This document shows positions 3,805 through 60,089 of a stretch of 64,000 nt of DNA, piece by piece. The notes under the pieces are model-generated. The model was not told the DNA's origin, did not search any database, and saw only the letters and a list, made by a program, of their open reading frames with translations. Both the position numbers and the translations under genes were made by a program. Source of the stretch: Eledone cirrhosa (Eukaryota); NCBI GenBank assembly GCA_964016885.1, contig OZ024743.1:38440001-38504000 (forward strand). Reading direction: 5' to 3'. The stretch's first letter is position 1; every line of letters starts with the position of its first letter.

Positions 3805-4137
3805 ATCATATATAATTCTGAACTCGATATATTTGATATATTTCACATAGTGTAAGATAAAGTTGATTAAGTTAGATATACACATATACTTGAGAAGAAT
3901 GTTTCATACATTCAAAACATAATCACAATCATTAGGTATTCAGTGATACATGAGATATAACTACATTTAAATTGAAGACATTTAGATAATCTGGAATGGC
4001 TATACATGTTATCACTCTTTTGATAGTAACTATGCTTTAATTTTATTGTAGGCCTTCTGGTGTTTACCTGAATAATGTCTGGCCTCGGGTGGTTAATTTT
4101 ATAAAGAATATTTACTAAGTACACTCCGCATGTATTA
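3805..4137. repeat. Left arm of a ~330-bp inverted repeat (partner 6819-7151)
   Basis: Highly similar to the reverse complement of 6819-7151, e.g. tttactaagtacactccgcatgtatta / taatacatgcggagtgtacttagtaaa. Confidence 0.9.
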
Positions 4138-4191
4138 TATATATTTTTGTTTATTTTTTATATTATTTCGTCTTATTTTGTAATTTGATAT

Positions 4192-4221
<30 letters not shown>

Positions 4222-4225
<4 letters not shown>

Positions 4226-4854
4226 AGTATGTATACGTACATACATATATGTATACAGACATACAGTAGTATGTATATATATATATAAACATTCATGCAG
4301 ACATACATATATGTACGTATGGATTCACCGAACATTTATTATAATGCTCGGTGTCTTTGTAAACAAACATACCCGTATTAAGCCGTAGTGTATAGTAACC
4401 ATCGTTGCTCGTTTGTTCAACACTGACAAAGTTGTTGTCGGTGCACCCGGGCGTTTAACCCACTCGATATGCAAATTGGGCTACACAGCTGTTAATATGC
4501 ATGAGGAAAGTATATACTTTCAGACGTTCAATCATCTGGCAGGAAAGTATACGTTGCTGACGATAGCTAATAAACTTGAAACTAGTACAGCGTTCCGTTG
4601 TCAGTGTTGAACAAACGAGCAACGATGGTTGCTAGACATTACGGCTTAATACGGGATGTTTGTTTACAAACACCCCGAGCATTATAATAAATGTTCGATG
4701 AATCCATACGTACATGTATATATGTATGCGTGTATGTATATATGTATACATACTACTGTACGTCTGTATACATATATGTATGTACGTATACATACTTATA
4801 TTTAAGTAACAGCCGTACTAAGAGTGGGAAATGAAATTTCGTTTCATTTTTTCC

Positions 4855-4860
<6 letters not shown>
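4222..4860 (+). mobile_element. Non-coding hammerhead-bearing fold-back element, family H1, copy 1
   Basis: Inverted arms at ~4222-4428 and ~4598-4800, with an HHR at 4551-4593. Homologous to 12580-13300 and 39355-39836; flanked by (TA)n. Confidence 0.85.
4551..4593 (+). ncRNA. Type I minimal hammerhead motif (family H1)
   Basis: acgttg CTGACGA tagctaataaactt GAAA ctag TA cagcgt; stem I acgttg/cagcgt (one G-U pair), palindromic stem III ACTAGT, GUA cleavage triplet. Stem II is decayed in this copy. Confidence 0.75.
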
Positions 4861-4925
<65 letters not shown>

Positions 4926-4926
<1 letters not shown>

Positions 4927-4955
4927 TAGCTAAACTACCCGTCCTGTGGATGGTT
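4926..4955 (-). mobile_element. Possible Helitron 3' terminus
   Basis: Minus strand reads accatcc-aca-ggacgggt agtttag CTAG|t: a GC-rich hairpin a few bases before a terminal CTAG, next to (TA)n. Confidence 0.4.
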
Positions 4956-5966
4956 CAAGTAGCTTTCGATGTACTTCATTAAACTAAGCAAAGTAAATTA
5001 GAATACATAGAAAAAAACGTACTTTATATAAACATGACAACCTTAAGCGAAATAATTAATATGTGAGCCCGGTGTCATCCGTTATGCCATGTAACAACAC
5101 AAATTCAATCTAGGTATGAATTTTGTTGACAACAGTAAAAGCGCATCATGAACTAGAGAACTGAAGTGAATAATAGACAATATTATGTACAAAGCATAAT
5201 ATTGTAAAAGTTATGACATCACTTAATGTATGAACATGAAGCTTGCAATTATAAATTATACAATGTCAAATCTATAACTTAACTTAGTAATCTGTTAGAA
5301 ATTGCTGGTTGTGAAATATACAAAATGATATTGTTAGTCTCAAGGAAGCGTACCTTTAGTTTCAAGTACAAAGAAAAAAATTAAAATCCGAATGAGCCAA
5401 ATTACGAAATATAACTCTTGTCTTACTTAATCACGAAAATTAACACAAATAACCGAAACTTTTAATGTCTGCAAAGTCACCAATATAGATTTTTGAGAGC
5501 CGTTGTAGATCATGTACAGTTTTTGTGTAAAGTGAAGCTCTGTAAAAAATTTCAAAGAAATTGCATGAATGGTTTAGAATATATGAGCCTTCATTAAAAA
5601 TTGTCCACACACAAACATACACACACATACAGAAAACTTCCTCCTTATTAATATATACAGACATAATGAAATAATAGACAAAAATATACCTATACAAACA
5701 TATGCCATATAATATATATATATATATATATATGTTCATTTACAAAATGTGTCGTCGTCGGCGTCGTGTTATTAGTTTACTATAGTTCACTATAGAAAGG
5801 TTATTTTATGAAAAACATATTATATTGTTTTAATTCAAATGAAAATAAACATTACTCCTGGGGACTAATACCTTATAAAATTTGATTTTATTTAATCCAG
5901 CCATTTGAGAATGCATAGGAACAGACAGAGAGACAGAGAGACAAATAATTATATATAGAGAGAGAT

Positions 5967-6107
<141 letters not shown>

Positions 6108-6263
6108 GAAACACACAGATACATGCGGACACACACATATATACATGAATGCATCCGCACCCAACTGTGAGTTAAGGGTGCCAACTTCACCGATGTTGCT
6201 CAATGAATGACTGGGACAGACCAATTCAGTTTGAACCAGACTGAACCAGTATCAGAGTTAAAA

Positions 6264-6769
6264 ATACATTATGAAGAGAGAAGAAACATTTAGATATAAT
6301 TAGTAATAAAATGTATCATACCTAAACTGTTCCTAAATTCCTCGACTACGTAGTTTCGTGGCATAAACAAAAACAATATATCAAAGATATAGAGTCCTTG
6401 CGAGGTCTGCCGACTTATCAAGAGGATACCTCATTTTACTAGTCTCAAGAACGCGTCTACACGACGTGAGAAAGAATCCCAAAAGGCGGAGGGGGAGATA
6501 GTCACGCGATATAACGGTCGAGAAACAGAGCTAAGCCTCTTATAACCACGAAGAAAATACCACGGAGGCGGAGGGGGTATTCATATCGAGGCCATATCTG
6601 TTTCTCGACCGTTATATCGCGTGACTATCTCCCCCTCCGCCTTTTGGGATTCTTTCTCACGTCGTGTAGACGCGTTCTTGAGACTAGTAAAATGAGGTAT
6701 CCTCTTGATAAGTTTAGGTATGATACATTTTATTACTAATTATATCTAAATGTTTCTTCTCTCTTCATA

Positions 6770-6775
<6 letters not shown>
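6264..6775. mobile_element. Fold-back element (family H2) with an extended hammerhead in the left arm
   Basis: 6264-6529 is the reverse complement of 6597-6775 apart from an ~85-bp segment missing from the right arm; that segment holds most of the HHR. Confidence 0.85.
6339..6426 (-). ncRNA. Type I hammerhead, U3-A8 core variant with a long loop II
   Basis: Minus strand: tcctc TTGATAA gtcggca [44 nt] tgccac GAAA ctacgtag TC gagga; perfect 5-bp stem I, palindromic stem III, GUC triplet. Confidence 0.75.
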
Positions 6776-6813
<38 letters not shown>

Positions 6814-6818
6814 ATCTT

Positions 6819-7151
6819 TAATACATGCGGAGTGTACTTAGTAAATATTCTTTATAAAATTAACCACCCGAGGCCAGATATTATTCAGGTAAACACCAGA
6901 AGGCCTACAATACAATTAAAGCATAGTTAATATCAAAAGAGTGATAACATGTATAGCCATTCCAGATTATCTAAATGTCTTCAATTTAGATGTAGTTATA
7001 TCTCATGTATTACTGAATACCTAATGATTGTGATTTGGTTTTGAATATATGAGAAAGTCTTCTCAAGTATATGTGTATATCTAACTAATTCAACATTATC
7101 TTACAATATGTGAAATATATCAAATATATGGTGTTCAGAATTATATATGAT
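6819..7151. repeat. Right arm of the inverted repeat (partner 3805-4137)
   Basis: Reverse complement of 3805-4137. Confidence 0.9.
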
Positions 7152-7663: not shown

Positions 7664-8600
7664 ATACTTTGGGAGGGTCATGTTGCCAATAAGAAACACA
7701 CGCACCAGTAGTTTCACTTCAATTTATTATATATTTATAAATTTATAAATTTACAAATTTACAAACCTATACATTTCTGGTTGGTTGGTTGGTTCCACAA
7801 CCAGATAGTTGTTTATATATATAGTCATAGTCCTTTCGTCACACACTCTGTGACCTCTTCAGTGACTGGGGATTCCTTTCTTCGTTTCTGTGCCTTTCCT
7901 TTCTTCTATCCTAGGCCATTTTGTTTCTGTGTGTGTGTTGTGTGCTCAGTTTGCGCATGCGCCACATCCGGGTGTCTGTGTGTGTTTGTGTTCATTTTTC
8001 TATTTTTCTATTTATATTTTTCTATTTGTTTATTTATTTATTTATTTATTGTTGGTTGGTTGTTTGTTCTATGTGTGTGTGTGTTTTCATTTTGTCCTGT
8101 GTGTGTTTTCATTTTGTGTGTGTTTTCAATTGTAAGTTGTTTGTTCTATGTGTGTGTGTGTTTTCATTTTGTCCTTAATTGTAAGTTGTGATGTTGCTGT
8201 TCCACTCATATTTTCTATTTAATTTTGGTTTTAATTCTTTTATGCTTACTGCCTCTGTAATTTGCCTAAACATTGCGTCTTTTCTGTGTGTGGATTCTAT
8301 TTTTATTTCTATGCTCTCTAATCTACCCCTGTGTTCTATCTTAGCATGTTGGTAGAGCACAGATGATTCTTTATTATCTTGGAGGTCTCGCCAGTGTTCA
8401 TTTATTCGTTCCCCTATACTACGAGCTGTCTCACCTATGTACACTATATTTTTGTTTCTAGATTGTCCTTCAGTACATCTTATGCTATACACTACATTTC
8501 TAGTTTTACAGTTAATATGGGGGCTTATTTTACAGGTTATACATTTCTTATCTATACATGAGGGTCTTTGGAACGGGTATGTCTTGCTAATAAGTGTTTT
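7658..8600 (-). mobile_element. Penelope-like element 3' fragment (GIY-YIG) plus pLTR
   Basis: ORF 8175-8492 reads YSIRCTEGQ...VYIGETARSIGERINEH...RQITEAVSIKELKPKLNRKYEWN. The pLTR terminus tattgttatactttgggagggtcatg abuts (TA)n. Confidence 0.92.
7823..7867 (-). ncRNA. Type I minimal hammerhead in PLE pLTR (well formed)
   Basis: Minus strand: agtca CTGAAGA g gtcaca-gagtg-tgtgac GAAA ggac TA tgact; perfect stems I and II. Confidence 0.85.
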
Positions 8601-19049: not shown

Positions 19050-19440
19050 AAAAGGAAAAGAAAATGCTGACAAATTGTTCGTTGTGAAAAATAGTTTAAT
19101 TAGGAATAAGTAAAAATTAGTATATAGTATTGGTTAGTATTCAGTTTTGGTTTTAAGTTTTTACCGGTTGCGCATTTCTAATGCTTTTCAAAAATAATTT
19201 TGAGATAGAGCGCCCGTGATGTTTGCTCTAATCTGATTAGTTTTGGAAATTCTACCTGTTTTATGTGAAAAAAGTGTCTCCAGATGTATTAAAATAAGTT
19301 TCGCGTCAATTCCTGTTGCAAAAATTATTGTGGTCAAAACAATTTTGATTGGCCGGTAGAGGTTATGTGAATGTTAAAAATTGATTTTGCGCCAAATGTA
19401 GGCTTGGCTCGGCTGATTGAGAAGTCACTGAAAAATAAGT
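19050..19440 (-). mobile_element. Decayed PLE 3' end with U3-A8 hammerhead relic (19158-19195)
   Basis: Minus strand: ttt TTGAAAA gcatt-aga-aatgc GCAA ccgg TA aaaa, homologous to the family H3 HHR. The upstream sequence weakly resembles a GIY-YIG C-terminus (LIHLETLF). Confidence 0.5.
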
Positions 19441-19567
19441 CTTTTAACACAAATATGTGTGTGTGTAGTAGTAGTAAAGAGGTTCATTGTTGTGATAATT
19501 GTCAGTAGGGATGTAAGTGTGAATTGCAGTCATGTTGACAGGTCAACAGTTCAGGTGCCTATTGAGA

Positions 19568-19780
<213 letters not shown>

Positions 19781-20441
19781 CAGAGTAATTCGTGGTAGAG
19801 GGATCGGTCAGTAGGAATGTGTCTGTACGTGTGTGGGGGATATTTTAAAATATATTTTTCAGCTCTTGTCTTATACGGAGAAGTGTGTGTGTGTGTGTGT
19901 GTATGTCTATTTGAATGTTAGTGTACGCGTGTGCATGTGTGTGTGTATATATATGTGTGTGTGTGTGTATATGTGTGTATGTGGGCGTGTGTGTAGGTAG
20001 ACCAGTATTTTTGTGATACTGGTAAAAATGGTGTATATTATTCGATATTTTCAGTAAAAACGATTCTCTCAATAGAACATCAAAAACCTTAATAATAAAA
20101 GGTGTGAAATGATATATAGTATTGGCATAAGACCAAGGTGTGGGTGAGTGTCCAGATTGTACGTACTGCAAGGGGAATCCATTAGGCCGTGCCGTATTGT
20201 AATACTTGTGTACAAATATCTATGTGCCCATCAGTGTGCAATGCATGTGTGCGTATATGTATGTGTGTGTGTCGGCACGTTTATATCTATAGACATCAAA
20301 AGGTATGCAAATTTGTGTATATTTGCACCATAGAACATGTGTGTTTACGTATGTCATTGTGTTTATATGTGGATAGAGATGTATGTATGATGTATGCTGA
20401 TGTAGATATGTATGTTGACGTGTGTATGTTGTGGGTTCGTC

Positions 20442-20975
20442 TTAGGGAGAAGTGTTTAGAAGGGGTCCGTATTTGTTAATAAAGTGAGATTCCTTGCTGA
20501 TGCGCTGGGTGTGGGTGGCATTATCTTTAAATTTGTAGAGGGGAAAGATTCTGAAGTTGGGATGATTTTTGGCGGCACATGTATCAATGTGTTCACTCAG
20601 TGGTATTTTCCTGTATTCCCGCATTTTAATTTGGGATCTATGGACAGTCATGCGTTGGCGGAGGCTGTTTTTGGTCTGGCCTATGTATAGTTCTCGACAA
20701 CCTGAGCAAGTTAATACATATATTAGATTTTCTGATGCGCATGTGAAATTGTGTTTTACTATAAAACATTGTCCTTGTTTGAAATAGAATTCCGAACCCT
20801 CTATTAGGTTGATGCATATGCCACAGTTGGGTCTATCGCATTTTTTACTCTGGGTTTCGTTGTTGTGGTTGGCAGTACTTTGGCATGCGTTAGGATGTTT
20901 TTCATTGATTTAGATTCTCTTTTGCTCTTTATGATATCGTGTGTTCGTAGGATTTGTTCATTGTATGGTCCTTTT
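20442..20975 (-). mobile_element. PLE fragment of a second clade: Cys-rich linker plus GIY-YIG endonuclease
   Basis: With one frameshift: ...KCDRPNCGICINLIEG...HNFTCASENLIYVLTCSGCRELYIGQTKNSLRQRMTVHRSQI...KESHFINKYGPLLN. Confidence 0.9.
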
Positions 20976-28454: not shown

Positions 28455-28822
<368 letters not shown>

Positions 28823-28962
28823 ATTAGAAAGTGAGGTTTTTTTTACAAAATGAAAAATAACCGAGGTGTCCTACACGAGTGGAAGTATAAAGAAAAAGAG
28901 ATGAAATCGAAAATGCAACTGAAGTCTTATTTTAAAAAAAATATATATATATTTATTTGGTT

Positions 28963-29000
28963 CCTTTACCGGTTTCGCAGTTCTTCTGCTTTTCAAAAGG
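28963..29000 (-). ncRNA. Type I minimal hammerhead, U3-A8 variant
   Basis: Minus strand: cctt TTGAAAA gcag-aagaa-ctgc GAAA ccgg TA aagg. Confidence 0.8.
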
Positions 29001-29070
29001 TGAGTTGAGATGGAGCGTCTGTGGTTTTTCTCACATGTGAGAACAACCACAGACCCTCCATCTCAACTCA

Positions 29071-29108
29071 CCTTTTGAAAAGCAGAAGAACTGCGAAACC
29101 GGTAAAGG
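29071..29108 (+). ncRNA. Type I minimal hammerhead, U3-A8 variant
   Basis: cctt TTGAAAA gcag-aagaa-ctgc GAAA ccgg TA aagg; perfect stems I and II, palindromic stem III ACCGGT, GUA triplet. Confidence 0.8.
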
Positions 29109-29179
29109 AACCAAATAAATATATATATTTTTTAAAAAAATAAGACTTCAGTTGCATTTTCGATTTCATCTCTTTTTTT

Positions 29180-29259
<80 letters not shown>

Positions 29260-33640: not shown

Positions 33641-36600
33641 CTTGGTTGTCCATCATAAACGATAATGTCATCTTCTTTATTTTAGTTCCCGTCTGCCATG
33701 GGCACCAAGTTGGCTGTGGAGGCCGATCCTTGACTTGCAGGTCCGTGAACAGTAGGAGCAAGTGAAGAGACCGGATTCGCTTGGGGCAGCTGTTGGTGGC
33801 TTTCTCCTACTTTCACGGGCCTCAGTGACCTCTGTCCGTCTCTTATCTTGAAAAGAGTCTTTGGCACCTCTGGTAAGGGCTCGCCACTCAGTCCTGTCCT
33901 GAGCATGAGACTCGAGTTGCTTTGGCGCGATTCCAGTGTTGTTGATACTGAACTTCACGCAGTTTTTGAACCTCTTGAGAGGCCTGCCCCGCTTTCGTTT
34001 CCCAGAACAGAGTTCTCCATACATCAGTTGCTTCGGAAGCCTGTGATCGTCCATCCAGATGACAAGTCCCACCCATCAAAGTTGGCTCTTCAGTATCATA
34101 GCTTCGACACTGGTTGTCTCAGCCATGTCAAGAACTTCGATGTTGAAGACCTTGTCCTGCCATTTGATGTTCATGATTGACCGCAGGCTGCGCATGTGGA
34201 ACCGTTCTAACTGCTTCAGGTGCCTTCTGTACAGGATCCCTGTCTCACATCCGTAGAGGAGGCTGGTGAGAACAACGGCCCTGTACACATTGAGCTTGGT
34301 GGACTGCCTGATGTGCTGGTTCAGGACGCATGTCCTCAGGCGGCCGAGGGCTTGACTGAACTTGCAGATTCTGGCGTCTATCTCCTTGTCAAGACTTCCA
34401 TCGCTGCTGATGACACTGCCGAGGTACTTGAAGTCGTCCACCATCTTTAGCTGGGTGCTTCCGATGGAGATGGAAGGAGGGTGGGAGATGGAGGCAGGTG
34501 CAGGCTGGAACAGGACCTCAGTTTTGCCAAGGATAATTGAGACCGAAGTGGCAGGAGGCCTCCGCGAACTTGTTGACGATGAGTTGGAGGTCAGACTCCA
34601 TGTGGGACATGAGGGCACAGACGTCAGCAAAAACTGCCTCCAGGACGATTTCTTGGCTGTCAGGCGCCGCAGGTCAAACAGCGAGCCGTCCAGTTTGTAT
34701 CGCAGAAACACTCCATGCTCGAGGTCCCTGACGGCATGATTGAGCACGCTGGTGAAGAAGGGGTTGAAGAGGACGGGAGCAGCACGCCTCCTTGCTTGAC
34801 GCCGTTGGTGATTCGGAACGGCTCGGTTGCCTCTCCGCCAGAGCGCACCTGCCCGGTCACGTCCTCATGGAGCCGTATCAGGTTCACAAACTTTGTCGGG
34901 CATCCAAACTTCGACAGGATCGACCAGATGGCTTCCTTGTTGGAAGTGTCGAATGCCTTCGTGAATTCTATGAAGACGGCAAAGAGGTCCATGTTCTGCT
35001 CGACACACCACTCCTGCACCTGGCGTACAAGACGATCATGTCTATCGTGCTGCGGTGTGGGCGGAACCCACACTGGGTCTCAGGAATGTTGTTATCCGAG
35101 ATGTTGGCAATGAGGGTGTTGAGCATGACCAGAGCCAGGACCTTCCCGGCGATGGATAGGAAAGAAATGCCCCGATAGTTGGGCACGGCTGAAGTCTTTG
35201 CGCACCTCTTCTTCCTCCCATATGCTGACGAGGAGGGTGTGGGAGGCCCCCAGGGTAGCTGGACCGGCCGATTTGAAGATCTCGGCAGGAATCCCGTCTT
35301 TCCAAGGGGCCTTTCCTGAGCTGGGCTGGTTGATTGCCTTCGTGACTTCATCCAACGTAGGTCGAGGCTGCCGACTACGGGCTTCTGTGGGACCTGGTCG
35401 AGGGCGGCAGGATCGACAGTGGAGGGCCTGTTGAGCAGGTTGTTGAAGTGCTCTTCCCAGCTCGAGTTGATGCTGCTCTTCTCCTTCAGCAGGATCGAGC
35501 CGTCAGCAGGAAGCAGCGGTGTGGTGACAGGCTTGGGGCGTCCGTAGACGCACCCGATGGCGCTGAAGAACGTCTTGGAGTTCTTTGTATCATCGTATCT
35601 CTCGATTTCTTCGGCCTTCTTTTCCCACCACTTGTCCTGCATTCTGCGTAGCGCTGCTTGGGTCTGCCTCTGGAGGTGCGTGAAGCGGTTGCGCTACGAG
35701 GTGGAGAAGCAATCATTCTGCCACTCAATGAAAGCCCTCCTCTTCTCGTCCAGGAGTTGACTGATGGGCTTATCTTTTTCATCAAACCAGTCCTGTTGGA
35801 CACTCTTCCTCGGCCCGATGGTTGCCTTGGCTGACTATGTCACCAGCGAACTGAACTGGTCCGACTGTTGAGTTGGGGGTCCGGTCAGTAGTCCAAGGGC
35901 AGTCAGCGGGCCGTCCAGATGCTCCGCGAACGCATCACGATGCTCTGGCTGCTTGATCGTGCGTCGTCGAAAGCTGGCTTACAGTATTTCGGAGTCTTGC
36001 GATGCGTCGGGGTGATGTGCAGTGACAGGATGGTCCTGACAAGGTGATGGTCAGTCCAAAACTCTGCACTACGCATGGACCTGGTGATTCCGACCTCACG
36101 AATGTCGCTCTTGCGGCATATGCCGAAGTCAATCAGATGCCACTCTTTGCATCTGGGGTGCATCCATGTTGTTTTCAACTTGTCTGCCTGCGGAACAGTG
36201 TGCTGGTGATGGTGAGGTCGTTCTCGGCGCAGAAACTCAACAGTATGAAGCCGTTAGAGTTCACCTTCCCTGTGCCGTGAGTTCCCAGCACGCCTCTCCA
36301 GTTGCTGCTGTCAGACCCGATACTTGCGTTGAAGTCCCCCAGAAGGATGGGTTTATCGCTTTGGGGGTGGGGTGGGGGGGTACGACCTTAACGAGTGTGT
36401 TGTGTTCCCCGTAGAAAGCGTCCTTTGATGCATCGCTGCTGGTGAGAGTGGGGGCCTACGCGCTGATGACTGTGACATACCGACATGGGTCGAGGGGGAG
36501 GCGGAGCTTCATCAGCCGCTCACTCACCACAGGTGTTGGGATGTCTGGTAGCTGCTTGCAGATTGAAGTCCTGATGGCCAGCCCTACCCAGTGGATTCTG

Positions 36601-44896: not shown

Positions 44897-46348
44897 TTAT
44901 ACTTCTCTTAGGTCAGTGTTGTTTGTTTGGGTGTTGTTGTTGTTCCACTCATTCTTTCTGTTTAGCTTTGGTCTTCTAATTTCTATTTCACTGGCCTCTC
45001 TGATTTGCCTATCTGCTGGGTCATTCCTATGTTTAGATATTATTCTAATTTCTATGTTGTCTATGTTACCGTCATGTTGTTGTCTAGCATGTTCGTATAG
45101 TACTGACCCGTTTTTTCGTCCTTTTAGTTCCCCCCAGTGTTGGTCTATCCTTTCACCTATGCTACGAGCTGTCTCACCTATGTATGTTGTTGTCATGTTT
45201 CTGCAAGTACCCTCTGTACATCTTATGCTATAGACTACGTTTCTAGTGTTACAGTTTATCCGGGGGTTCACCTTACAAATGATACATTTCCTATTGGTAC
45301 AGTGGGTTTTCTTAAAAGGGTAGGTTTTGCTGATCAGGGATTTTATGGTGGTTCCTGGCTTTTCTACCACCTTTATTTTTAAGTGGGTTTTTCTCAGGGC
45401 CTTTCTACACTGGTTAGCTAATTTCCCTCCAGGGGTGGCGTCCACAAACATGACACTCTGATATCTCTGGTTGTCGTACCATGATGTGGCCTTCTCTATC
45501 TTATGTCTAGTCCTATCTAAGCTATTCCATGATTTGCTCCTGTATAGTGGGCAAATTCCTTTCATGTCCAGTTCTATGAGGGTCTTATACTTTTCCATGG
45601 CTCCTTCGTATACTCTGACTCTGTCTCTTTGGTTGTAGCCAGAGAACTGCATGCGGTTGATGAAGTGTTGGATGTGTCCTTCCATTTCTGTTGGGTCGCA
45701 CATGCTGGACACATTCTTCATCACTCGTACCAAATCTGCGATCAGAATATTAAACTTAGCACTACTGGACATTGCTGAGTTTTTGAGTATCAGGTATTTG
45801 GAGGCCATGGGTTTAGCATAGTGTGAGTGGAGAATTTGGGCTCTCTCGTCTATAGTGTTAATCCAGAGTTCTGTGTCTAATACAGGTAGTCTATTGTTAG
45901 GGTGTTTGGAAGGGAAGTCTATAGTTACAGTTATACTCTGGTGTATGGAATTAGCTATCTGCTGGATGCTTTCCATCGTGCTACGTTCTAAATCAAACTT
46001 GTTAGTGCTCTCTAGTGGGGGTGTTCTTATAACTATATTGATATCGTCTACATAACGAGAGTACATGATGAGGTCTATGGAGCTTTCATTAAGGAGATCT
46101 TTAAGTCTCCTTTCCCACCATACCATGAAAAGGTTGGCAACATCACCAGCTATGCTGACGCCGATGGCTGCTCCCTCATTTTGGGTGTAGATTTTCTCAT
46201 TGAACTTAAATATGTGGCCCTTTAGGGTAGTTTTGATACTAGCCCCTATTGCATGTGCGACCATTTTTCTTACCTGATCAGTGTTTTGGGGGGTCCGTAT
46301 AGCTTTGGTCCACCCAATCCACCTTCCTATGGGAGTCTTTTTAGCCAT
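44897..46348 (-). CDS. Penelope-like RT (C-terminal part) - thumb - Cys linker - GIY-YIG endonuclease, 483-aa open segment
   Basis: Uninterrupted ORF with RYVDD, SGY, CTNRKCIIC...NC, VVYSIRC and YIGETAR...R...H...REA...PKLN. It continues upstream in another frame (46354-46569). Confidence 0.9.
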   Translation of the reverse strand: MAKKTPIGRWIGWTKAIRTPQNTDQVRKMVAHAIGASIKTTLKGHIFKFNEKIYTQNEGAAIGVSIAGDVANLFMVWWERRLKDLLNESSIDLIMYSRYVDDINIVIRTPPLESTNKFDLERSTMESIQQIANSIHQSITVTIDFPSKHPNNRLPVLDTELWINTIDERAQILHSHYAKPMASKYLILKNSAMSSSAKFNILIADLVRVMKNVSSMCDPTEMEGHIQHFINRMQFSGYNQRDRVRVYEGAMEKYKTLIELDMKGICPLYRSKSWNSLDRTRHKIEKATSWYDNQRYQSVMFVDATPGGKLANQCRKALRKTHLKIKVVEKPGTTIKSLISKTYPFKKTHCTNRKCIICKVNPRINCNTRNVVYSIRCTEGTCRNMTTTYIGETARSIGERIDQHWGELKGRKNGSVLYEHARQQHDGNIDNIEIRIISKHRNDPADRQIREASEIEIRRPKLNRKNEWNNNNTQTNNTDLREV

Positions 46349-47280
46349 TGAGGTTATGGTGGGGGTCTACCTCTTATAGGTCTACTAGGGCAGAAACATC
46401 TAAGGTCATGGCTGTCTAGGTAGTCAGTGTCGTAGGTAAGTCTAAGTAGGAGGCCCAGTTCGTCTGTGTCGACGTCGCAGAACTCCACCTCACACTCAAT
46501 GATCATCTCCACACATCTTTTCACAGCAAAATCAATGTTAATGGATGGGTACAGTGACACCACATCCATGCTGCCTATTATGCATAATATGCTAAGATTT
46601 TCATAATTATAAATTTATTATATTCTCATAAATTTTGTAGATGAATCATTTACATAAACTGCAACGTTGACTGCTTTGGAAAACGAAACTAAATGTTTCA
46701 AATAATCAGAATTAATCCGTCAACAGGAAAGACGAAATTTCGTAGAAAATGGATGTTGGAAGTTTAGAAAAAAATGTTGATATAAAAGTTTGTGATAAAG
46801 GTCCTGCGACCCGGTGCTACACCTAGCCGTTTTTGCCTGCGGCATTTAATATCTAGAGTATAAAAACGTGAACATAACAATCTCCAAGCTGTTTCAATAT
46901 CCTCTAGTTTGCTCAGGGAGTATTCTGAATACATGAGTGCATATACATCATTGTCAACAGCAAACGGATATAATATAATAATCAGAAATGTTTGAACAAT
47001 CATATTGGTTCAATTGATTAGAAAGCAATTCAACTAATTAATAATGTTGGCCTAAGAAATCATTAATGAGATCAAAATATTCCTGCGAGTTAATTAAATT
47101 AATATTTAAGTTAATCCAAATAATCATCGTGTTAGTTTAATTTATTAGTAGTGTTAATTAGTTGTGTTAGTTTAATAACTAAATCATGCTGGTTTAATCA
47201 ATTAGTCGCATTAGTTTAATCAATATTTCATGATATTTGAATTAATTAAACTTATCTTATTGGGTATATATATTTTTTTA

Positions 47281-50668: not shown

Positions 50669-51372
50669 TGTATATGCATTTATATTCACACACACACACA
50701 CTCACACACACACACAAGCATTTCTAATGCTTATCAAAAATAATTTTGAGATAGAGCACTCGTGATGTTTGATATATATTCATTTATGTGTAGTGGTTCA
50801 CCATTGGTTAGAACTATGTATTCCGCTTAATACACCATGACGTAATAGTAGGAAAAGCACTCAACATTATGCAGCTCATCCATCGTTGATGTTGAATAGT
50901 GTGGTTGGTGCAGGAACGGAGCTATATATTAGTTTGGTTAATAGAACAGGAGGCCGGACCTGTGAAGTTCCTTTCACGTTTTTTGTTGTTGTTGTTGCAA
51001 AAACACTATATATATTTCAATGACCTGGTTAGGTACGATTCTGGTGACATCATAATGTTCGGATTGCATAATTAGTTGAAAATAAAGACATTATGTCAAA
51101 CACAATATAGAACAAATATTGATCCGGAGAGGGCCCACGTTTATTGTTTCCGCAAACAATCCCGAATTAAATATGTTTTCTATATTTTCTCTGTGTGTTT
51201 TGCCATAATTCCATTATGGATTAACTAATTATGCAATTCGCGCCTGATGATGTCACCAGGATCTCACTGAACCAGGCCATTGAAATATACCTAGCGATTT
51301 TACAACAATAATCGTTAAAGGAACATCACCAGGCCGGCCTCCTGTTATTTTTTCATATATATATATATAGTA

Positions 51373-51608
51373 ATGTAATAAACAACATAACATAATTATT
51401 TTATTTACCAGTCGTTTCTTGAAAGCAAACAAAATTGCTTTCATTCATCAGAATGAAAAAATCCTGGTGTCTTTATTGGCAGTGGATTTGAAAAACCACT
51501 GTAAATAAAGACACCAGGATTTTTTCATTCTGATGAATAAAAGCAATTTTGGTTGCTTTCAAGAAACGACTGGTAAATGAAATAATTATGTTATGTTGTT
51601 TATTACAT
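51373..51608. mobile_element. Fold-back element (family H5) with hammerheads on both strands
   Basis: Palindrome with ~110-bp arms around the loop atttgaaaaa; HHRs at 51400-51458 (-) and 51523-51582 (+). Confidence 0.88.
51523..51582 (+). ncRNA. Type I hammerhead, canonical core
   Basis: tttcatt CTGATGA ata aaagcaa-ttttgg-ttgcttt caa GAAA c-gactg-g TA aatgaaa; 7-bp stem I, long stem II, GUA triplet. Confidence 0.8.
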
Positions 51609-52707
51609 AACTAATGAGCTCTGTAACTTACAAAGAACACTCTTTTTTCCTGGACCTTTCCGACGGAATTACTTCATTCACATATATATATATATATGTT
51701 AACGAGATATCGTTGAAGGTAATCCAAATAGATGTTATCAGAATTCTGTATCGAGTGACGAAAGGTACAATACCTCCGACAAAATTCTAAAGTTCTTGTC
51801 TACCCGAATTTAACTCAGGTTGACCAGCCATTATGGTAGAAATCCATATACCACGTATTTGGCTCAAATCTTGAAACTCGTGCGAACTTCTTAACCAAGC
51901 AAATATGCATGTCTCATATTTACATCTACATATCGGACATATAGATACCTGTCAAGCTCTAAAAACTCAAAAGGAGAGAACCCCCAAATGGGGATATTTT
52001 AGATAACGAAAACTATACCCATTTTCACGAGAGGAAACACTTCAAACGCAAACCAAAGTAGGTGAAAGATCTCCTTGTCAGACGGGGATAGTTGAGAGGT
52101 CCGGATATACAACATTGTAGATCACAAATGACTTAGAAATATAAACCTTGGAATATTTCAAGTAATCTTTTAATTATTATTTCTAAATGATTTAATGTTG
52201 AAACTTGTGAATTCCCTACTTTATTTTTCTGCTTGTCTATTCATCCTTACTGTGCCACGTGATTAAAAAATAAAGGTGATGTCAGAAACAATTGCATCTA
52301 TTTTCAATTGCTTAAATATGTAGCCAGAAAAATCTATATATATATGAACGGAAAATTAAAGTTTTGGCTGTGGCTCTTACGGAAAGCATTACAGATTCTT
52401 GAATCTTAATTAACTGCTTCGCCCAGCGCATTAAGTTTGTCATTGCTGTTTTACGCATAGGATTTATGAAATAGAAGCCTGGTACATATATTGTTCCACG
52501 TTACATTATATTTTTAAAACTGAAGAAATATCTTTCGCCTGACAAAAAGGGTCTTTAATGTGAAAAAATATCATTAATTAATCAAACAATAAGTTAATGA
52601 ATATGCACAAACCTTAATAAGATACTTTCTTTCTTCTTTCCTCAACGAATATTAAACTGCAATAACTAAATTCAGATTCAAATTACCTTCATATCAACCT
52701 TATGTAT

Positions 52708-55082: not shown

Positions 55083-55293
55083 ATGTGAGAAAAACCACAG
55101 ACCCTCCATCTCAACTCACCTTTTGAAAAGCAGAAGAACTGCGAAACCGGTAAAGGAACCAAATAAATATATATCATTTAAAAAAAAATAAGACTCCAGT
55201 TGCATTTTCGATTTCATCTCTTTTTCTTTATACTTTCACTCGTGTAGGACACCTCGGTTATTTTTCATTTTGTAAAAAAAACCTCACTTTCTA

Positions 55294-55296
<3 letters not shown>
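55083..55296 (+). mobile_element. Solo family H3 unit with U3-A8 hammerhead (55119-55156)
   Basis: Near-identical to the reverse complement of 28822-29040; HHR identical to 29071-29108; ends in (TA)n. Confidence 0.88.
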
Positions 55297-55960: not shown

Positions 55961-56112
55961 ATTATCTGGTATTTTGTTTTAATTTGTTATTAATTTTAAA
56001 AAGATGCTCTACGAATTATGTAATCATACATTCAGTGCGGATTGTCTCTAAGGCTTTCTTCGATACATCTTAATATACGTATAAGTAGGTATGGATATCT
56101 TTCATTAAGTTT

Positions 56113-57896
<1,784 letters not shown>

Positions 57897-57917
57897 ATAT
57901 ATATATATATCCTTACA

Positions 57918-57986
<69 letters not shown>

Positions 57987-58547: not shown

Positions 58548-58602
<55 letters not shown>

Positions 58603-58605
<3 letters not shown>

Positions 58606-58777
58606 TCATTTATTTATTGGTGTATGTGTATGTGTGCATGTGTCCGCGTATGTATGTATATATGTACATACATATATATATATACATAAATATATATATA
58701 TATATATGTATGTACATATATACATACATACGCGGACACATGCACACATACACATACACCAATAAATAAATGAATTT
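58603..58777. repeat. Perfect low-complexity palindrome around a (TA)n centre
   Basis: aaattcatttatttattggtgtatgtg...gtccgcgtatg / catacgcggac...caccaataaataaatgaattt. Confidence 0.9.
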
Positions 58778-59126
58778 ATATATATATATATATATATATT
58801 AGAAAGATCGAGTATCGAAAAATCGGCGCACGAGTTCACGATAAACAAAATTCGAAATGAGCGGCAGAGGGCTCAATAATTCAGATGAATCAGAGCTATA
58901 ACTATCGTTAAAATACCGTCACATATAGAACAAGTCTACAATCAACCATACGATAAAAAATCGATAATAGAAGATTCGGGACAAACAGATAAAAAATATC
59001 AATAAAACAATACATCAATAATTTAAATGAATGTAAAATCATACCCGGACCCACTAGAAAGGTGTTAAATCTAGCTTCTTGGGTTTCTGTAAATCCTTAG
59101 ACTGTACTCTATCAGCTCACATATAA

Positions 59127-60089
59127 ATATTGTTATGCTTTGGGAGGGTCATGTTGCCAATAAGAAACACACGCACCAGCTGTTTTCACTTCAATGTATT
59201 ATAAATTAAAATTATAAATTTAGGAATTTATAAATTTACGGTTGGTTGGTTGGTTCCACAACCAGACGAGACGATTGTTCATATATTGTCAAAGTGCTTT
59301 CGTCACATATTATGTGACTTCTTTAGTGACTGGGGATTCTTTTCTTTGCTTTCGTGCCTCTCTTTTTTTCTGTCCTACGCCATCTTGTTTTTGCTGTGTG
59401 CTTACTTTGCGCATGTGTTTCATCCGGATGTATGTGTGTGTTTATATTTGTTTATTTATTTATTTATTTACATGTTACTGGTTAATTGTTTGTTCTATGT
59501 GTGTGTGTTTTTCATTTTGTCCTTAATCGTAAGTTGTGATGTTGCTATTCTATTCATGTTTTCTATTTAATTTTGTTTGGAGTTCATTTATGTTTATTGC
59601 CTTTAAATACGCAATGTTTAGACAAATCACAGAGGCTTTAAACATAAATAAACTCCAACCAAAATTAAATAGAAAACATGAATGGAAGAGCAACATCAAA
59701 CCTTAAAATTAAGGATAACATTAAAACACACACACACACATAGAACAAACAACCAACCAGTAACATGTAAATAAACAAATAAATAAATAAATATAAACAC
59801 ACACAGACACACGGATCTAACACATGCGCAAACTAAGCACACAACAAAAACAAGATGGCGTGGGACCGAACAAAGGAGAGGCGCAAAAGCAAAGAAAAGA
59901 ATCCCCAGTCACTGAAGAGGTCACAGAATGTGTGACCAAAGAACTTTGACAATATAAGAACAATCGTCTCGTCTGGTTGTGGAACCAACCAACCGGACAT
60001 TTATGAATTCCTAAATTTATGAATTGAAGTGAAAGCATCCAGTGCGTGTTTCTTATTGGCAACATGACCCTCCTAAAGCATAACAATAT
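59127..60089. mobile_element. Inverted pair of PLE pLTRs (7658 family), each with a mutated hammerhead (59287-59331 minus, 59907-59950 plus)
   Basis: The two halves are diverged reverse complements, joined through the last GIY-YIG codons (AMFRQITEALNINKLQPKLNRKHEW). The cores read CTAAAGA...GAAA and CTGAAGA...CAAA. Confidence 0.9.

Follow-up and report, generated by a model that had tools for sequence, protein, structure and literature searches.

A stretch of 64,000 nt of the Eledone cirrhosa genome (contig OZ024743.1; referred to throughout as the window) contains a short fold-back with the same hammerhead motif on each strand, raising the question of whether it is a ribozyme element in its own right or a fragment of something larger. 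A first-pass annotation had described a palindrome with identical 38-nt U3-A8 hammerheads on both strands and a solo copy elsewhere in the window, and this is confirmed by coordinates and string identity. The palindrome spans 28822-29183, is centred at 29032-29039, and has long (TA)n tracts on both sides. Its parts and the solo unit are as follows, using the family assignment argued below:

28822-29036, minus strand: tailed arm, almost certainly the 3'-terminal ~215 bp of the pseudo-LTR (pLTR) of a Penelope-like element (PLE), from the 5' hotspot to the long 3' end, within (TA)n
28822-28885, minus strand: optional tail of ~64 bp, left arm only (tail concept from the available text of PMC3846280, PMC8557442 and PMC11167929)
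28963-29000, minus strand: minimal type I hammerhead of the left arm, predicted cut 28967/28966
29032-29039, no strand: head-to-head junction CACATGTG, whose central AT is common to both arms
29035-29183, plus strand: untailed arm of ~150 bp, ending at the short 3' end of the family and followed by (TA)n
29071-29108, plus strand: minimal type I hammerhead of the right arm, equal to the minus-strand copy, predicted cut 29104/29105
55083-55296, plus strand: solo tailed unit of the same PLE family, from the hotspot to the long 3' end, in (TA)n
55119-55156, plus strand: hammerhead of the solo unit, placed by string identity

Each arm of the fold-back is ~95% identical to the solo unit, and the arms differ from one another by two substitutions, a homopolymer tract and the ~64-bp tail that is absent from the right arm. 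Both start at +2, i.e. 2 nt inside the 5' hotspot of the family, and the palindrome is a typical case among the head-to-head pairs of this family. Palindromes flanked by long (TA)n are difficult to assemble, and no spanning read or contig was found for the full fold-back stretch among the records searched, as would be expected of an assembly or library fold-back artefact. Such an origin is nonetheless exceedingly improbable, given that the arms differ in substitutions and tail, that 55 similar pairs have varied tips with strict tail asymmetry, and that a 68-nt Logan contig (run X1) crosses the tip, matching 28989-29056 with 0 differences and including both arm-private variants. This contig reaches only ~21 nt beyond the tip on one side, less than the bridging rule, and X1 is possibly the sample of the assembly itself.

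The 38-nt string CCTT TTGAAAA GCAG-AAGAA-CTGC GAAA CCGG TA AAGG is identical at +29071, -29000 and +55119. It combines a U3-A8 core and a GUA triplet with helices I and II of 4 bp each, and a palindromic CCGG stands in for helix III; positions are numbered according to the established hammerhead consensus. The core boxes, the 3-8 Watson-Crick pair, helices I and II, the palindromic helix III and the NUH triplet of a minimal type I hammerhead are thus all present, an architecture described in the available part of PMC4209133. The same source already reports U3-A8 in Schistosoma PLEs, which bears out the earlier reading of this pair as a compensatory core variant. The predicted fold of the 47-nt motif has helices I and II with a stability no greater than that of shuffles (z -0.81), and the CCGG helix III duplex is predicted at -10.3 kcal/mol. 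No hammerhead family is among the 150 Rfam matches listed for the window, the rows being microsatellite and hairpin noise. The hammerhead is identified by its core motif and stems, by the PLE setting and by the way the stems covary with a sister family; folding energy plays no part in this. The motif lacks a monomeric helix III and requires a same-sense partner; we predict that it is a pLTR passenger dependent on a dimer partner.

The motif is abundant in the 3.0-Gb assembly. A 24-mer from the hammerhead core has 12,324 exact matches and its reversed control has 0, so that the motif is not a chance occurrence, and a 20-mer further 3' in the unit has 17,841 (reversed control 0). Upstream of a long copy lies a repetitive 3' UTR and before that a GIY-YIG frame (Pfam E 1.5e-8). 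A hammerhead match is present on some strand in 19 of 20 ORF-bearing loci, and in 17 it lies downstream of GIY-YIG on the GIY-YIG strand. One locus (L106-L107) is a tandem array arranged pLTR-ORF-pLTR-ORF-pLTR, with three pLTR ends and two ORFs at a period of ~4.9 kb and the unit at each junction, and argues against the ORF-linked copies being chimeras. In tandem copies the tail end abuts the leader of the ORF start, with the ATG 13 nt past the long 3' end in this array. A single 598-aa frame contains RVT_1 (26.2 bits, E 7.7e-6, below the cut-off of 29.6) followed by a C-terminal GIY-YIG domain (26.4 bits, above the cut-off of 22.6), and includes DKG, YLDD, a C-x4-C-x2-C linker and a CCHH motif of two Cys and two His.

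Because the unit is contiguous with an RT/GIY-YIG ORF in tandem copies, it is almost certainly, judged from sequence features, the last ~215 bp at the 3' end of an EN+ PLE pseudo-LTR. The hallmarks of this group are found together here, namely the RT and GIY-YIG ORF, tandem pseudo-LTRs, an inverted 5'-truncated copy, a one-sided tail and a pLTR hammerhead. By its motifs, which do not separate Neptune from Nematis, the element is assigned to the Neptune/Nematis type. The independent minimal hammerhead element proposed in the first-pass annotation is not borne out given this contiguity, and its suggestion of recent activity fares better, since the family is young, 68-77 of 77 arms agreeing with the window copy at most positions. 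A MITE or DNA transposon was rejected on account of unequal ends, variable centres and contiguity with the RT ORF, and a pair of matches 3 kb apart at 26.47 Mb of contig C1, considered as a full-length element, proved to be two separate insertions. The PLE 3' UTR (L106:7155-7841 and L040:2042-2700) is composed of ~330-bp tandem repeats that vary in number between copies, each with CCAAT-, E2F- and E-box-like words, and is possibly an expandable enhancer array.

The 5' boundary of the unit was mapped in 100 listed matches of the 3' 20-mer, which lie in the first 25 Mb of C1 and were taken whether or not they contain the hammerhead. Forty-four arms start at -1 to +5 relative to the A in AGATG, and 51 at -3 to +11; a further 27 run upstream, some into the ORF, with three reaching the 1.4-kb limit of the flank examined, while 11 start at +12 to +71 and 11 at or beyond the predicted cut at +72. 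The boundary is thus a strong mode, not a fixed end. The defined 5' boundary proposed earlier is a true hotspot. The outcome named there as speaking against an independent hammerhead element, scattered 5' ends extending into a PLE ORF, is found in part, in the 27 upstream arms and the ORF contiguity.

The sequence TATAAAA begins at -30 in 23 of the 24 arms that extend that far, and one natural copy has what we take to be a CCAAT box at -80 and an E2F-like motif at -110, the TATA, CCAAT and Inr labels being consensus matches in AT-rich DNA. In the sister family the TATA-to-hotspot spacing is identical and 18 of 38 informative arms start there (by eye). From its position 30 nt below a TATAAAA box, the hotspot is probably a transcription start; pLTR promoters and dimer cleavage are reviewed in the available text of PMC6765202. 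A splice acceptor (CAG followed by ATG) was discarded as an explanation for the hotspot since the AG is retained in many arms, as was an RT-stalling structure, the folds being weak (-7.6 to -12.5 kcal/mol).

The arms are strongly paired. In a sample of 172 arms on C1, part of which was selected for hammerhead content (pair and arm samples were drawn from the first ~32 Mb of this one contig), 110 form 55 head-to-head pairs within 4 kb, together with 7 tail-to-tail pairs and 1 same-strand neighbour pair. One tailed and one untailed arm are present in 50 of the 55 head-to-head pairs; the exceptions are four tailed-tailed pairs, two of them more than 3 kb apart and probably separate insertions, and one untailed-untailed pair. 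The arms of a pair have concordant alleles in 25/26, 43/45 and 44/47 cases, against shuffled means of 14.6, 25.0 and 16.9. Among 40 short pairs examined by eye, the tailed arm extends further 5' in 21 and the untailed arm in 17, with two ties, and most tips, also by eye, have loops of ~0 nt and overlaps of 0-2 nt. The sister family has one tail per pair in 5 of 7 pairs and departs from this in the other two. A GTGT-NNN-ACAC hairpin is kept in the tails of both the window family (28822-28885, minus strand) and the sister family, with different loops, and is a candidate RT start signal.

The combination of one tailed and one untailed arm with common alleles fits priming at two sites on one uncleaved RNA, and we lean towards reading the fold-back as a 5'-truncated PLE insertion of two head-to-head pLTR ends formed in this way. 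The mRNA would start at the hotspot of the upstream pseudo-LTR with the hammerhead 72 nt in, and reverse transcription would begin shortly ahead of the ORF, ~150 or ~215 nt from the RNA 5' end. At a (TA)n target, each of the two nicked strands would prime at these two internal start sites on the same uncleaved RNA, both cDNAs would run to the RNA 5' end, the likely transcription start, and their ends would be joined tip to tip with 0-2 nt of microhomology or small deletions. The solo unit would be a run-off cDNA from a single priming event, and longer arms may derive from the 3' pseudo-LTR or from read-through RNA.

Several of these steps have in vitro precedents in the available text of PMC11167929, in which a purified PLE protein makes nicks in both strands of the target and extends them, begins reverse transcription at two internal sites bounding the tail, and inserts from uncleaved RNA whether the hammerhead is functional or not. 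No difference in start-site use between strands was seen in that system, which as far as this text goes does not explain the strict one-of-each pairing. We found no start-site run-off, one-of-each pairing or genomic cleavage footprint in the open-access main texts examined and searched, and no PLE paper among those listed that frames inverted copies as twin priming or the pLTR as a strong-stop.

The pairing evidence also bears on a different origin of the second arm. The same PLE end could have been copied by snap-back self-priming of a single cDNA, or from an antisense template, with later deletions at the tip. The common alleles of the two arms are as expected of such copying, or of later gene conversion, and weigh to that extent against two-site priming, as do the 5 of 55 pairs and 2 of 7 sister-family pairs that do not have one tail each. 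Where the asymmetry is at least 20 nt the tailed arm is the longer in 8 pairs and the untailed arm in 3 (by eye), and head-to-head palindromes of rotifer Penelope elements are read as self-priming products in the available part of PMC3846280. However, the untailed arm lies further 5' in 17 of the 38 untied short pairs, where snap-back needs a later deletion, many tips have no loop, and the position of the untailed end is fixed and coincides with the second RT start in PMC11167929, as far as its available text describes it. Such tip deletion is plausible, and the lack of polarity that we count for two-site priming could likewise reflect later asymmetric deletion at palindrome tips; snap-back therefore remains a real rival, albeit one we consider unlikely.

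A third possibility is that the 215-bp unit has turned into a SINE- or retrozyme-like element, transcribed independently but non-autonomous in that the PLE mobilises it in trans. Unit-length arms make up about half of the total, a start at -1 to +9 is found in 33 of 62 unpaired arms, and animal retrozymes have been linked to PLE pLTRs (preprint 10.64898/2026.07.22.740005, available in part). Against this, the subfamily alleles of the units are those of the long copies, promoter-like motifs lie upstream of the unit and none inside, starts at the cleavage site are seldom seen, and the single same-strand neighbour pair within 4 kb among 172 arms leaves no room for tandem arrays of the retrozyme type. 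We consider an independent unit improbable, and two-site priming on PLE RNA remains the reading that we favour.

If the templates of these insertions were PLE RNAs, their 5' ends also bear on whether the hammerhead cuts in vivo. The majority of arms extend upstream past the scissile bond, and their templates were thus uncut there. Counting arm starts genome-wide with matched patterns, where +1 is the predicted scissile bond, gives 96 at +1 versus 49 at +2, and arms starting at the bond are about 0.5% of all arms. At pure-(TA)n junctions (by eye) there are ~24 starts at +1, 12-15 at +2/+3, 10 at +5 and 10 at +6/+7. For comparison, 15 upstream positions together have 37 sites, and a control TA that is present in about half of the copies has 8. 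Non-redundant reverse-strand counts are 85 in a window around the cut and 22 in an upstream one. Of the ~19 arms with a partner that reaches upstream of the cut none starts at +1, versus ~13 of 39 others, a comparison made by eye on 100 rows with ~40 indel or duplicate rows left out.

The excess is partly due to microhomology of A/TA with the (TA)n target, and a sharp cleavage footprint at the predicted cut was set aside, the peak being weak and in part confounded in this way. The two- to fourfold excess of starts at the scissile bond is suggestive only, and the chance that it is a footprint of cleavage is a little below even. More tentatively, and doubtful as a whole, the thousands of short insertions may be an in vivo record of the PLE cycle in which one uncleaved RNA is primed twice, from each target strand at one of the two internal start sites, and the ~0.5% of arms that start at the scissile bond mark rare cleavage, whereas the sister family has multiplied to thousands of copies although A13C is fixed in its core. 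If this is true, one RNA primed twice with run-off at the transcription start would yield both the head-to-head palindromes and the one-sided tails, and PLE hammerheads would be dispensable for mobilisation or brakes on it, not tools that excise the template.

The transcript of the fold-back itself had been proposed as a rod-like RNA containing a ribozyme, and a functional RNA of this kind is doubtful. It is predicted to form a near-perfect duplex (-227 kcal/mol) in which the hammerhead motif is buried, the antisense arm comes first whichever strand is transcribed, and the locus has no same-sense partner for helix III. The upstream TATA and CCAAT elements are absent from both window arms. As regards viroid-like rod RNAs, the locus is a genomic insertion. 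In favour of the earlier view, that a minimal ribozyme element is active here and that its fold-back is transcribed into a functional rod-like RNA in which the hammerhead works, are the intact and identical motifs on both strands and the covariation of stems I and II with the sister family. With the motif buried, no same-sense partner, no promoter-like motif within the unit, and the locus only one among many varied by-products, we rate that reading as very improbable. On these structure predictions a working ribozyme in the fold-back transcript is unlikely; any transcription of the locus would more probably yield dsRNA as a by-product.

The window and the flanks examined contain several related elements. 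The sister family is represented by a 5'-truncated copy and its hammerhead:

19075-20900, minus strand: 5'-truncated sister-family PLE with a GIY-YIG fragment (55% aa identity), a 3' UTR and a TATA-like box
near 19192-19155, minus strand: sister-family U3-A8/A13C hammerhead, used as the comparison copy

A further sister-family copy lies near 50738 (minus strand). The sister family has 4,100 genome matches, with A13C in 99 of 100 listed copies, and its hammerhead retains U3-A8 and CCGG with helix I and II pairs changed on both sides. To our knowledge A13 of the hammerhead core is normally invariant, and the family is widely amplified with a core that from its sequence is possibly dead.

A third PLE-like family, whose hammerhead has a C3-G8 core and a long helix II, is found at 59127-60089, near 1478 (plus strand) and near 7866 (minus strand), the first of these being an older head-to-head fold-back with ~83% arm identity. 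A 489-aa frame at 44897-46366 (minus strand) with RT-like and GIY-YIG-like motifs (by eye), repeated ~3.7 kb further on, is probably a tandem PLE of another family. Long inverted repeats or palindromes beside (TA)n at 56063-57969, 3805-7151, 58580-58799, 51368-51613 and 6413-6713 may represent other families inserted as fold-backs. The broken, GC-rich frames at 34076-35693 (minus strand) look RT-like by eye and are probably a non-LTR retrotransposon. Elsewhere, an unrelated GIY-YIG frame at L037:4527-4928 (minus strand; Pfam E 0.0027, below the cut-off) belongs to yet another PLE family, and the flanks of L047, L050 and L055 contain other C3-G8 minimal hammerhead-like motifs with a palindromic loop 3.

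The locus is an ordinary PLE by-product, and it is the family that is of wider use. It provides a natural data set both on the origin of PLE head-to-head palindromes with a one-sided tail and on in vivo cutting by minimal PLE hammerheads, which is called unclear in the available text of PMC8557442; that of PMC11167929 has no reads ending at the hammerhead cut site. With more than 12,000 young copies, the 5'-end distribution and arm pairing are open to measurement base by base, and for a cleavage assay the U3-A8 family and its U3-A8/A13C counterpart are a ready-made pair. If transcribed within host genes, hairpins as close to perfect as these could enter small-RNA or editing pathways.

PLEs are already known to have U3-A8 cores, hammerheads paired on opposite strands, head-to-head palindromes, one-sided tails and (TA)n targets, and the comparisons that follow are with the available portions of the works cited. 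U3-A8 minimal hammerheads occur in the pLTRs of Schistosoma Cercyon PLEs (Cervera and De la Pena 2014, PMC4209133), and the metazoan PLE hammerheads described there share with ours the U3-A8 pair, short helix I, G10.1-C11.1 pair and palindromic helix III; those PLEs are likewise mostly single truncated copies, with opposite-strand pairs 100-700 bp apart. Helix II is 4 bp here and 7-8 bp there, however, the extra A9-G10.1 base is absent here, and our copies are about tenfold the ~1,300 reported, with much lower sequence variability.

The Neptune/Nematis EN+ PLEs (Craig et al. 2021, PMC8557442) resemble this element in the C-terminal GIY-YIG, CX2-5CxxC linker, CCHH and DKG motifs, and in tandem pLTRs, an inverted 5'-truncated copy, a one-sided tail and a (TA)n target, but the tail is ~64 bp here and 30-40 bp there. 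The Adineta vaga Penelope elements (Arkhipova et al. 2013, PMC3846280) similarly have ~200-bp pLTRs, head-to-head inverted repeats with palindromic junctions, a tail on one inverted pLTR, solo pLTRs and a TATA box with an Inr-like motif; their copy number is low, whereas ORF-less unit dimers are a main product here. Poseidon of Anolis carolinensis (Frangieh et al. 2024, PMC11167929) is alike in its two RT start sites bounding the tail, its AT-rich target and uncleaved RNA as the main template. It differs in having a C3-G8 core that overlaps the ORF start, in place of a hammerhead ~150 nt before the ATG, and in that no report of one-of-each start-site pairing was found in its available text. 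Animal non-LTR retrozymes (PMC7229834; 10.64898/2026.07.22.740005) share the short non-coding unit, the type I hammerhead and kinship with PLE pLTRs, but they form head-to-tail tandems, whereas the units described here are solo or head-to-head, with a single same-strand pair as against 55 head-to-head pairs within 4 kb among the 172 arms.
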